Assembly (NCBI GenBank): GCA_016931955.1 | Contig: JAFGDV010000013.1 | Span: 1 to 27,642, forward strand | DNA: 27,642 nucleotides | DNA from: Candidatus Altiarchaeota archaeon | Lineage (GTDB): Archaea; Altiarchaeota; Altiarchaeia; IMC4; QMZM01 | Direction: 5' to 3' | Shown here: positions 25,854 to 27,642 of the stretch, piece by piece | Numbering within the stretch: position 1 is the stretch's first letter | How the letters are laid out: every line of letters starts with the position of its first letter | Position numbers and translations under genes: made by a program | Notes under the pieces: model-generated | Told to the model about the DNA's origin: nothing | Seen by the model: the letters and a program-made list of their open reading frames with translations, nothing else | Databases searched by the model: none

Positions 25854-26015
25854 ATGGCTGAGATGATACATATCTCAAAGAAGGAATATGAGGAGATGAA
25901 GGCTACAATAGAGACCCTCCAAGATCAGGAGGTTTTGAAGCAGATTGCTATGAGTGAAAAAGAGATCCTTGAAGGGAAAACCCACAGATGGAAGGATGTG
26001 AGGGATAAAATCTAG
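25854..26015 (+). CDS. 53-aa antitoxin-like protein (RelB/Phd C-terminal type), absent from the ORF track
   Basis: MAEMIHISKKEYEEMKATIETLQDQEVLKQIAMSEKEILEGKTHRWKDVRDKI*; purine-rich RBS upstream. Confidence 0.78.
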   Translation: MAEMIHISKKEYEEMKATIETLQDQEVLKQIAMSEKEILEGKTHRWKDVRDKI

Positions 26016-26293
26016 TATTCCTTTTCGGCTTCTTTCTTGCTTTTCAGGGCTACCAGATGCAGCAGATTTTTTGCTTTGTCTTCTAAGAACCACAGCCTCC
26101 AACTGCCAATCCTCTGCTGGAGGAATGGGTGGAGTCTTCCCTTGAGTCGTTTTTCTATCACCTTCGGGGGTTCGATGTCGAGCTCTGATATCTTGTATTC
26201 TATGTCGCCCAGTTTTTTCTTGATTCTTTCTCTGTCCGTTCCGCTCAGAGTCAATAATTTCTTTAGGATATGGTCTGGTATCTCAAGTTCCAT
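26012..26293 (-). CDS. RelE/ParE-like toxin
   Basis: 93 aa, basic; KKLLTL...RERIKKKL, KRLKG, LQQRIGSWRL resembling YRLRIGDYRV. Confidence 0.72.
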   Translation of the reverse strand: MELEIPDHILKKLLTLSGTDRERIKKKLGDIEYKISELDIEPPKVIEKRLKGRLHPFLQQRIGSWRLWFLEDKAKNLLHLVALKSKKEAEKEY

Positions 26294-26376: not shown

Positions 26377-26709
26377 TCAGGCAGGAACGGTCTTATCCTG
26401 CTTTTCCAGCTCTTTCTTGATGAAGTAGTCGGAGATCCTGACGTCAACCTTTACCAATTCCTGGACAAGAGGGTTTTTCTCGTCAAGGCGGTATAGTCTG
26501 GCGTTGGCTATCGTCCGGGTCTGCTCTACAATACCTGTTTCCAAGAGCCCTGGAAATATCCTATGCAGGGTGGACCATGAAACTCCTGAGTTCTTGGAGA
26601 TGTCTGATAGTGTGTAGTCATACAAGCCTCTTTCAGCTAACAGAAAGTCTATGACTTTGATCGTCGGCGAGTCCCCGAAGACCCTCTTGAAAGCGGATTT
26701 TTCCTCCAT
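26377..26709 (-). CDS. Winged-HTH DNA-binding protein
   Basis: FGDSPTIKVIDFLL, DYTLSDISKNSGVSWSTL, TRTIANARLYRL. Confidence 0.85.
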   Translation of the reverse strand: MEEKSAFKRVFGDSPTIKVIDFLLAERGLYDYTLSDISKNSGVSWSTLHRIFPGLLETGIVEQTRTIANARLYRLDEKNPLVQELVKVDVRISDYFIKKELEKQDKTVPA

Positions 26710-26809: not shown

Positions 26810-27046
26810 ATGGATAAGCTTAAAGTTCACATACTCAGAAGGCTGCACAGGCACACCTACGTCGGCAGACGGCATATGGCAATAACGGACCTGATGTAGG
26901 GTTTGCCCAGAGAGGAAAGAGTTCTCAGAGATATAAAGCAGGTAGCCAAGGAACTGATAAATGAGGGCTATCTACTACCCCAACACACCGACAGAGTATC
27001 CATCAACCCAAGAATGCTCAAGGAGATCAGAGAAATCGCCAGTTAA
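26810..27046 (+). pseudogene. 78-codon small basic archaeal protein with in-frame amber at codon 30
   Basis: MDKLKVHILRRLHRHTYVGRRHMAITDLM*GLPREE...KELINEGYLLP...VSINPRMLKEIREIAS*; protein-like on both sides of TAG 26897-26899. Confidence 0.72.
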
Positions 27047-27048
27047 AG

Positions 27049-27169
27049 TATAGCCCCGCCAGGATCGAAATAAGGGCATCTTATACCCTTATCAACCCTA
27101 AGAATTCGCCACAGGCGAATTCCTTTTTCTTTTGGGATGATAGACCTTTTCTTTCGCAAAGAAAAGGGC
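27049..27169. repeat. tRNA-linked structured repeat, unit A (behind tRNA-Gln)
   Basis: 17-bp duplication tatagccccgccaggat (27049 and 27170), motif cccttatcaaccc, three hairpins, gggatgatag. Confidence 0.88.
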
Positions 27170-27171
27170 TA

Positions 27172-27244
27172 TAGCCCCGCCAGGATTCGAACCTGGGTCT
27201 CCGGGTCCAAAGCCCGACAGGATTGGCCACTACCCTACGGGGCT
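27172..27244 (-). tRNA. tRNA-Gln (TTG)
   Basis: AGCCCCG/CGGGGCT acceptor stem, anticodon arm TCGGG-CTTTGGA-CCCGG, GTTCGAATCC T-loop; CCA not encoded. Confidence 0.97.
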
Positions 27245-27270
27245 ACGTAGAAGGGATAAATTCCTCTTGA

Positions 27271-27341
27271 GTCGAATTTGCCATAAGGTGAATTCCTTTT
27301 TCTTTCGCCAGCGTTTCTTTTTCCTAAAAAGAAAGGCTGAA
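27271..27341. repeat. tRNA-linked structured repeat, partial unit B
   Basis: Hairpins gaatttgcc-ataa-ggtgaattc and tttcttttt-cct-aaaaagaaa, homologous to units A and C. Confidence 0.8.
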
Positions 27342-27482
27342 GGCTATTTATGCGCCCGCCAGGATGAACATAAGGGCGCCTCCCCCGCCCTTATCAACCC
27401 ATCCGAGCCGTCGAATCCGCCTTGTGGCGGATTCTTTTTTTTTCTTTGGGATGATAGCACTTTCTTTTTCTTAAAAAGAAAG
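27342..27482. repeat. tRNA-linked structured repeat, unit C (behind tRNA-Gly)
   Basis: 19-bp duplication ggctatttatgcgcccgcc (27342 and 27483); same motifs and hairpins as unit A. Confidence 0.88.
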
Positions 27483-27491
27483 GGCTATTTA

Positions 27492-27564
27492 TGCGCCCGC
27501 CGGGATTTGAACCCGGGTAATCAGCTTGGAAGGCTGAGGTCCTACCAGACTAGACTACGGACGC
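27492..27564 (-). tRNA. tRNA-Gly (TCC)
   Basis: GCGTCCG/CGGGCGC acceptor stem, anticodon arm TCAGC-CTTCCAA-GCTGA, GTTCAAATCC T-loop; CCA not encoded. Confidence 0.97.
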
Positions 27565-27601
27565 ATAAGTGTGAGAACCTACGATTCTCCCTTATCAACC
27601 C
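27565..27601. repeat. tRNA-linked structured repeat, partial unit D
   Basis: ataag...gagaa-loop-ttctc-ccttat hairpin and exact cccttatcaaccc at 27589-27601. Confidence 0.65.
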
Positions 27602-27642
27602 ACCTCTCCCTTAAGATGAGCATCATCTAGGGTTTTGATGAA

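Follow-up and report, generated by a model that had tools for sequence, protein, structure and literature searches.

The terminal 600 nucleotides (nt) of a contig from Candidatus Altiarchaeota archaeon carry two tRNA genes set among short hairpins, and each full set of hairpins is closed by a duplicated 3' end of the tRNA that precedes it. We consider it probable that this stretch is a pile-up of gene-less, non-autonomous hairpin insertion modules at two tRNA ends, and that on insertion the target is duplicated as far as the end of the gene. The mobile core is a hairpin that we call M4. Its insertions have a polarity relative to tRNA genes and are often accompanied by flanking duplications, its structure is under strand-specific selection, and it is spread broadly among archaea and in some bacteria. 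An earlier reading of the same letters (the original prediction) described a non-coding family of three-hairpin units, in variants A to D, interleaved with tRNA genes, and proposed either a structure-selected non-coding RNA or a miniature non-autonomous mobile element; it overlooked the duplicated tRNA 3' end that closes each full unit.

Below, the window is the whole stretch of DNA that was analysed, 27,642 nt long. It is contig C24 of assembly GCA_016931955.1 (G000; 1.55 Mb, rated 92% complete). G-numbered genomes form an order-level comparison set of 49 genomes and L-numbers denote individual loci; the genomes compared are metagenome bins throughout. The parts of a unit are read in the sense of the tRNA, that is, on the minus strand.

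Hairpin units behind two tRNA genes

ARAGORN and Rfam identified two intact tRNA genes in the terminal stretch, both on the minus strand, tRNA-Gly-UCC followed by tRNA-Gln-UUG (Table 1). From the tRNA onwards, a unit consists of a hairpin H3, the motif CATCCC, an A-rich run, a hairpin H2, M4, and a fragment duplicated from the 3' end of that tRNA. H3 pairs a pyrimidine run with a purine run and starts 1-5 nt past the tRNA end, H2 is GAATTCGCC...GGCGAATTC and variants thereof, and M4 comprises the 13-mer GGGTTGATAAGGG, a variable paired stem and loop, and CCCTTAT. Successive units start 121, 179 and 141 nt apart. All three hairpins and their variants were found where the original prediction had placed them, as were the invariant CCCTTATCAACCC (27086, 27388 and 27589) and GGGATGATAG (27134 and 27448).

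The end of tRNA-Gln at 27170-27186 recurs at 27050-27066 with 17/17 positions identical, and that of tRNA-Gly at 27483-27506 recurs at 27342-27365 with 23/24 (96%); in both dead copies the T-loop part beside M4 is slightly shortened. The link with tRNA genes seen in the original prediction is more than interleaving: the elements lie at tRNA gene ends and duplicated tRNA ends follow them. Unit B (27246-27341) is an older set of H3 variant b, A-run and H2 behind the displaced tRNA-Gly end. At the other end of tRNA-Gly, a 35-nt direct repeat has its second copy beyond the contig end, on contig C27, and the 77-nt insert between the two copies includes 27591-27642. A public contig of the likely source sample extends past the window end, and back to 27556, and confirms this repeat.

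Table 1. Hairpin modules, tRNA genes and tRNA fragments in the terminal part of the window
Feature	Position	Strand	Remarks
Dead tRNA-Gln 3' end	27050..27069	-	T-loop to 1 base past the tRNA; T-loop part 27067-27069 with 1-nt deletion
M4 hairpin, copy A	27070..27098	-	hairpin 1 of the original prediction plus the invariant 13-mer
H2 hairpin, copy A	27102..27122	-	GAATTCGCC / GGCGAATTC
Unit A A-rich run and CATCCC motif	27123..27139	-	
H3 pyrimidine/purine hairpin, copy A	27140..27172	-	directly after tRNA-Gln; with T-runs
tRNA-Gln (UUG)	27172..27244	-	intact
H2 hairpin, copy B	27274..27295	-	GAATTCACC / GGCAAATTC; from the older unit behind the displaced tRNA-Gly end
Unit B A-rich run	27296..27308	-	
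H3 hairpin variant b, copy B	27309..27339	-	
Dead tRNA-Gly 3' end	27342..27369	-	with 9-nt trailer; T-loop part shortened
M4 hairpin, copy C	27370..27400	-	
H2 hairpin, copy C	27413..27434	-	GAATCCGCC / GGCGGATTC; compensatory changes relative to copy A
Unit C A-rich run and CATCCC motif	27435..27453	-	
H3 hairpin, copy C	27454..27488	-	directly behind tRNA-Gly
tRNA-Gly (UCC)	27492..27564	-	intact
35-nt direct repeat, one copy	27556..27590	-	first 9 nt of tRNA-Gly plus distal part of M4-long
M4-long (copy D)	27565..27601	-	inner GAGAA..TTCTC hairpin; abuts the tRNA-Gly 5' end

Covariation of the stems, claimed from the window, extends to 12 genomic copies of the A-run, H2 and M4 that we aligned, with compensatory changes in both H2 and M4. 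Standard pairs fill 96.1% of the stem cells, compared with 32-44% when the partners are slid, and at 4 stem pairs (18 cells) both sides have changed, which none of 500 shuffles matched. This count covered H2 and M4, the low-complexity stems of H3 being ambiguous to align; the H3 copies differ chiefly in the place of a single C:G pair within a T:A run, and complementarity is kept. The minus-strand folds of the two full units are much stabler than those of shuffled sequences (z = -4.4 and -5.7), and the repeat pattern is far beyond chance.

M4 hairpins from other species gave the same picture. The following counts cover 101 distinct inner segments, taken from other species' loci among the matches listed in the scan described below. 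The first inner pair is variously CG (32), GC (27), AT (14) or TA (10), and is Watson-Crick or G:T in 85% of the sequences, as opposed to 37.8% when the halves are mixed. Within the first three inner pairs G:T outnumbers A:C by 25 to 5, and the GGGTTGATAAGGG-bearing strand is thus the folding strand, as RNA or as single-stranded DNA. Judged by these substitutions, selection maintains the hairpins and acts on one strand. Within G000, GGGTTGA occupies the 5' side only in all such hairpins, save three unrelated chance palindromes.

As to the non-coding RNA half of the original prediction, the stems co-vary and one strand folds, and an RNA role is possible. A further proposal, that GGGATGATAG pairs back to TTATCAACCC, is possible by eye, with 8 Watson-Crick pairs and 1 G-U among 10, but the pairing occurs in no minimum-energy fold. 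The M4 partner of GGGATGATAG is invariant across the copies seen, and the GGGATGATAG side nearly so.

Copies, duplications and empty sites

We counted 17 copies of the 13-mer in the 1.55-Mb assembly, and 4-45 nt downstream of each lies CCCTTAT (CCCTTAA in one case). By pattern, H2 precedes M4 in 12 of these 17 copies, and one more (C9b) has a degenerate H2. The complete block of H3, CATCCC, A-run, H2 and M4 was found in three places, behind the Gln, Gly and Glu tRNAs; elsewhere M4 also stands alone. Because the hairpins combine differently from place to place, they are modules that combine rather than one fixed unit. The three-hairpin unit of the original prediction thus has real parts and too simple a plan.

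ARAGORN finds 14 tRNA genes in G000, or 19 with the intron option. Eight of the 14 (Pro, Met, Arg, Phe, Val-UAC, Gln, Gly-UCC and Glu) have one or two copies of their own 3' end nearby downstream, the Glu case spanning a contig break; tRNA-Cys has such a copy 9.6 kb away, where it bounds an integrase-bearing element, and the remaining five have none. Two types of junction lead into the fragments. At Gln, Gly, Pro (twice), Glu and Met the tRNA fragment follows M4; at Met, Arg, Phe and Val it follows another hairpin module, GTGCA..GGTGCT. This second module, in which a T/A-run hairpin lies between GTGCA and GGTGCT, was seen behind tRNA-Met, Arg, Phe and Val-UAC at C21:11450-12050 (L167), C22:7550-8100 (L163), C30:18400-18855 (L168) and C14:24650-25250 (L160), and the copy of the tRNA end after it begins at the last T-loop bases. 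The stretch duplicated at tRNA-Met measures about 38 nt and extends into H3.

Modules lie within 200 nt of 9 of the 92 contig ends of the assembly, compared with 28 of 5000 random internal windows, and evidently break the assembly next to tRNA genes. Such breaks may help to explain why a bin rated 92% complete has just 14 tRNA genes (19 with the intron option) by ARAGORN.

A separate observation concerns long forms of M4. Those with an inner GGAAC..GTTCC hairpin on G000 contigs C10, C14, C18 and C22 look nested, and in a Woesearchaeota bin (L148) the core of an H2-like stem, TTCGCC with GGCGAA, encloses M4, as though M4 had been inserted in the loop of that hairpin. Insertion into hairpin loops may be a rule.

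Relatives provide empty counterparts of the filled sites. The tRNA-Gly/tRNA-Gln pair is syntenic among them. Its spacer measures 24 nt in G001, which belongs to the same genus, 26 nt in G005 and 32 nt in G008, compared with 245 nt here. The trailer of tRNA-Pro, about 470 nt with three units in G000, is 76 nt long before a convergent gene in G001. Of the tRNA-Pro fragments in G000, the one closest to the gene agrees with the tRNA end at 16/16 positions and the next has 2 mismatches in 16, as expected if the younger unit lies nearer the tRNA; past the last M4, by our reading of both stretches by eye, the G000 sequence corresponds to the native spacer of G001. In another genus, G014 has an insert of about 185 nt and, with it, 21 nt repeated from the tRNA-Gln end, whereas G018 runs straight into the shared flank at this place.

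Two contigs from outside the assembly also bear on the Gly-Gln spacer. One from the likely source sample links the start of tRNA-Gln to the end of tRNA-Gly, skipping 247 nt (window 27244-27492), and one from a marsh metagenome, with identical tRNAs, has 85 letters between them as against 244 in the window. Relatives or strains with shorter spacers co-exist.

The original prediction had called for a covariance-model search of this genome and its relatives. A model of the A-run, H2 and M4 (E <= 0.001) matched 29 of the 49 genomes of the order, very unevenly: 36 matches in G000, 31 in G010, 10 in G024, and a single weak one in same-genus G001. No match was obtained in 20 genomes, five of which are at least 90% complete. 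The mobile-element half of the prediction is supported, with many copies, filled and empty sister sites, a patchy copy number, and enriched target duplications.

To quantify those duplications we used 131 M4 sites from other species' loci among the matches listed. Exact direct repeats of at least 12 nt flank M4, within 160 nt on both sides, at 31 of the 131 sites and at 9 of 568 controls; repeats of at least 20 nt flank it at 15 of 131 sites and 3 of 568 control positions. The downstream copy mostly starts 0-10 nt past CCCTTAT. The repeats, 17 to about 100 nt long, include tRNA parts from the T-loop on (66 nt in one case), opposite-strand 5' ends of tRNAs, ends of protein genes, and other sequence. 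In the smallest insert, at L051, two exact 66-nt repeats enclose M4 and a further 4 nt. Where an intact tRNA lies within 200 nt of M4, it is 5' of the hairpin in 32 of 37 cases.

The clearest protein-gene case is that of a gene for a phosphoenolpyruvate (PEP)-utilising enzyme, so assigned from the match of the G000 orthologue to Pfam PF02896. In G002, an element of H2 and M4 lies about 100 nt before the end of this gene, and the final ~100 nt of the gene, stop codon included, are present on either side of the element. The congener G011 has a plain gene end followed by the same downstream flank as in G002. Read by eye, the two G002 repeat copies share states that differ from G011, which favours duplication in place over an imported gene end, with a very close relative as donor also possible. 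Repeats of 37-50 nt occur likewise at gene ends in G018, in G014 and in one Methanobacteriota bin.

The core hairpin is not confined to this order. An exact-pattern scan of species-representative genomes recovered the M4 motif in at least 120 stretches from other species, and the 80 matches listed divide, tallied by title, into 61 archaeal and 19 bacterial records. Archaeal carriers among the matches listed include Woese-, Pace-, Nano-, Aenigm-, Micr- and Iain-archaeota, Altiarchaeota, Methanosarcinales, ANME-1, Nitrosotalea and others; the bacterial ones are mainly Clostridia bins, along with Anaerolineales, Atribacteria and Desulfuromonadales. Records from Saprospiraceae, Bacteroidota and others (L064, L082, L093, L111 and L145) are chance matches to the pattern, namely unrelated arrays of palindromic GGTTGATAA/GGTTGATGA-like 10-mers that resemble repeats of iteron or origin type.

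Some variations on the theme deserve separate mention. In Clostridia bins (L043 and 16 other loci) a conserved non-coding element, about 130-180 nt long, has M4 as its 5' end; at L043 the element is flanked by a 48-nt direct repeat. Members of one genus, g7 (L014 in G014, L002 in G007 and L025 in G018), have a different, mutually similar Gly-Gln spacer of about 250-270 nt from which M4 is absent; in G007, the tRNA-Gly 5' end recurs as a short, degenerate copy which, together with a GGGGGGATCGTAGGTTCTCAC module, lies directly upstream of the tRNA. In another family, L018 (G027, tRNA-Gly) and L019 (G034, tRNA-Gln) carry a small insert with inverted 10-nt and direct copies of the tRNA 3' strand; the two tRNA-strand copies enclose an inner hairpin, the dead tRNA end being the 3' arm of a long foldback. 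The H3, CATCCC, A-run and H2 modules come next at both loci, and these modules are therefore common to several families of the order.

A proposed course of insertion and its rivals

We infer the following course of events for the pile-up at the two tRNA ends. A trans-acting enzyme would place the element at an exposed gene site, here the T-loop of a tRNA. In the same event, the stretch of target that starts at the insertion point and ends just beyond the gene would come to lie on both sides of the element, through repair of widely staggered breaks or through repair synthesis. The gene-proximal copy would keep the gene whole, and only such outcomes would survive; the copy 3' of M4 would be dead and would decay. 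New insertions would strike the live copy, so that the youngest unit would be nearest the tRNA and arrays would grow outward.

A bolder version is possible, although we hold it only tentatively: M4 might be the core of an undescribed mobile class that crosses between archaea and bacteria. Its members would be strand-specific hairpins of 26-45 nt, moved through a single-stranded intermediate by an enzyme that is perhaps the host's, which insert in exposed gene loops while the gene end is re-synthesised. Re-synthesis of the gene end during insertion would explain why the duplications vary in length and stop just past the gene end.

Several observations weigh against our main reading, that of gene-less insertion modules at tRNA ends. 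Profile searches of G000 gave no match to Y1_Tnp (PF01797), the TnpB zinc ribbon (PF07282), Cas1, RVT_1 or DDE_Tnp_1, and the single tyrosine integrase of the assembly (PF00589; C38:51245-52453) lies inside the separate 9.6-kb tRNA-Cys element. Across the order, integrase homologues show no link to element numbers. No recurrent open reading frame (ORF) family was found near M4, among ORFs of at least 90 aa within 2.5 kb or of 50-200 aa within 800 nt, the top cluster of small ORFs reading through the Clostridial repeat itself. Viral contigs carry the motif in only 6 stretches with nothing informative nearby. No exact repeat of at least 12 nt flanks 100 of the 131 M4 sites elsewhere, and behind tRNA-Pro the third unit is not followed by a tRNA fragment; duplication may therefore not go with every insertion, although decay or intergenic insertion could explain the M4 sites that lack repeats. 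Polarity is reversed once, the intact tRNA-Gly lying 3' of the M4-long copy. At the PEP-enzyme gene, G018 and G014 show a complex difference of about 340 nt and no clean filled/empty pair, and sequence alone does not distinguish the new repeat copy from the old.

Other searches for a mover gave the following results. DDE_Tnp_1 does not track the elements across the order (no match in G000, G024 or G002; 36 matches in G022, which has no element). In the M4-bearing loci collected, we found no gene lying between convergent M4-like ends spaced 0.3-4 kb apart; the pairs matched were iteron-like arrays or separate M4 copies. A blastn search of plasmid records with the window unit and with the 187-nt Clostridial element returned no match. 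Failure to find an enzyme is weak evidence, because metagenome bins often lose repeated transposase genes.

The strongest competitor holds that the units are scars or miniature derivatives of tyrosine-integrase elements, with the tRNA repeat as the identity segment of an attachment site (att) and M4 as an arm site recognised in trans. A tRNA repeat running from the T-loop to the 3' end is the classic footprint of such elements, and the tRNA-Cys element is one true case in G000. However, M4 lies behind at least six different G000 tRNAs, each time with that tRNA's own end, and also at the ends of protein genes, where the repeats measure about 37 to 100 nt; a single attP cannot carry the ends of so many different tRNAs and protein genes. 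The two repeat copies of G002 are each other's closest relatives, pointing to duplication in place, the att-proximal end of the real integrase element is without M4, and integrase homologues are missing from the element-bearing genomes G002, G011, G007, G014 and G034. We therefore regard an integrase origin as unlikely.

Less probable again, in our judgement, is that the hairpins are functional RNA or DNA signals (a tRNA trailer, terminator, processing site, promoter or small RNA) spread non-selfishly by recombination or gene conversion. Much of the structural evidence would suit such a role: the compensatory stem changes, the excess of G:T that marks one folding strand, the strongly negative fold z-scores, and the agreement of the folding strand with the sense strand of the tRNA in 24 of 32 upstream cases. 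H3 with its T-runs begins right after many tRNAs and may double as an archaeal tRNA terminator, M4-long abuts the start of tRNA-Gly, and some copies lie upstream of gene starts. Yet a genome of the same genus does without the units at the same loci, a signal has no need of a dead copy of the neighbouring gene's end, and no Rfam family matches. Ordinary tRNA promoters here are TTTATAA-like rather than M4, and 20 nt that are exact across archaeal phyla and Clostridia, at a patchy copy number, fit spread better than a common function. That M4 is itself an ordinary tRNA promoter was rejected, other G000 tRNAs having TTTATAA-like boxes at about -30.

The least probable of these alternatives is that the hairpins provoke replication slippage or unequal crossing-over, the repeats being secondary tandem duplications round a pre-existing hairpin: plain tandem arrays of repeat plus M4 do exist, for example at L050, L066, L183 and L187, but tandem duplication of repeat plus M4 would leave two M4 copies, whereas single M4 copies lie between two repeat copies, the downstream repeat begins close behind CCCTTAT, and the empty allele of G011 lacks the M4 present in G002.

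Two further candidates were rejected. A diversity-generating retroelement does not fit, since the repeat differences at L058 are, by eye, not adenine-specific and G000 is without a reverse transcriptase match. Nor is the fragment a piece of a split or permuted tRNA, since a full tRNA lies directly upstream and the fragment spans only the T-loop to the 3' end.

Neighbouring genes and known systems

Upstream of the units, the window contains two small ORFs on opposite strands that overlap at their ends (25854-26293; 53 aa on the plus strand and 93 aa on the minus strand), both without a Pfam match. They adjoin a gene for a 110-aa winged-helix regulator (HTH_IclR-like; 26377-26709, minus strand). 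A 47-aa ORF on the plus strand (26903-27046) stops 3 nt short of the dead tRNA-Gln copy.

The integrated element at tRNA-Cys (L223; C38:51049-60750) is about 9.6 kb long and is bounded by two copies of the last 15-16 nt of the tRNA. Its products are a tyrosine integrase of 403 aa, a protein of 951 aa that weakly matches DUF3987, and a further protein whose match to the histone fold is weak. Beyond its distal repeat come H3, two more hairpins, an A-run and an H2 module.

As the original prediction supposed, the hairpin units belong to no named family. At Rfam gathering thresholds only tRNA was matched, in the window and in 10 other M4-bearing loci, and an E-value scan of 26900-27642 gave weak matches only, all under half of the gathering score of the family concerned. 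The literal motif turned up in the open literature, supplementary files being outside the search, only as unrelated primer coincidences, and topic searches of the open literature found no description of the element.

Among known systems, the att duplications made by integrases in tRNA T-loops are the most similar footprint. The attL/attR sites of archaeal integrative plasmids, viruses and their integrase-less derivatives likewise show a repeat from the T-loop to the 3' end, leave the gene intact, and can be stacked serially behind one tRNA. Unlike them, the inserts described here are gene-less and only 30-170 nt long, occur at many tRNAs as well as protein genes, and are tracked by no integrase, and their repeats appear to have been made in place.

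REP, BIME and REPIN sequences and palindromes derived from IS200/IS605 are likewise short hairpins outside genes. Their foot is conserved and flanked by a motif on the 5' side, their upper stem varies, and folding is strand-specific; they reach high copy numbers and cluster as mosaics, and in these respects M4 is alike. REP/REPIN sequences and IS200/IS605-derived palindromes depend on a Y1 (HUH) transposase, and to our knowledge they make no long target duplication. We also know of no REP family shared across domains, as M4 is. In contrast to this group, M4 is enriched in flanking repeats, and G000 has neither Y1_Tnp nor the TnpB zinc ribbon.

Direct repeats as long and as variable as those at M4 (17 to about 100 nt) are otherwise reminiscent of the IS1634 family. 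According to passages of one account, insertion of IS1634 and IS1549, which have DDE transposases, gives direct repeats of variable length (8-514 bp), and no mechanism is proposed in those passages; they describe the family as diverse in archaea and its elements as encoding their own large transposase (PMC2266710). DDE_Tnp_1 is, by contrast, absent from G000, and the loci collected contain no full-length element with M4-like ends.

Miniature transposable elements with inverted repeats (MITEs) share with M4 a small size, the lack of coding sequence, multiple copies, and filled and empty sites between relatives. They are defined by a pair of terminal inverted repeats, which M4 does not have: its left end is GGGTTGATAAGGG and its right end CCCTTAT, the only inverted repeat is that of the hairpin, and the CAACCC needed to complete it on the right is missing. 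M4 also lacks a short duplication of fixed length, its repeats being 17 to about 100 nt long with none detectable at many sites, and no candidate parent, an insertion sequence sharing these ends and carrying a transposase, was present among the loci collected. A large census of MITEs, as far as its main text goes, used MITE-Tracker and checked for sequences flanked by terminal inverted repeats; in that main text the word 'hairpin' is absent and 'tRNA' appears once (PMC11602168).

Set beside these systems, M4 is probably a small non-autonomous element, with a real chance of a mechanism of a new kind. If our reading is correct, a tiny hairpin element has colonised the ends of tRNA genes and of some protein genes in many uncultured archaea and some anaerobic bacteria. 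Its insertion would leave the gene whole with the old end stranded alongside, an outcome for which no transposase family found here accounts, and the 13-mer together with the 7-mer would provide a sequence handle for finding the enzyme.

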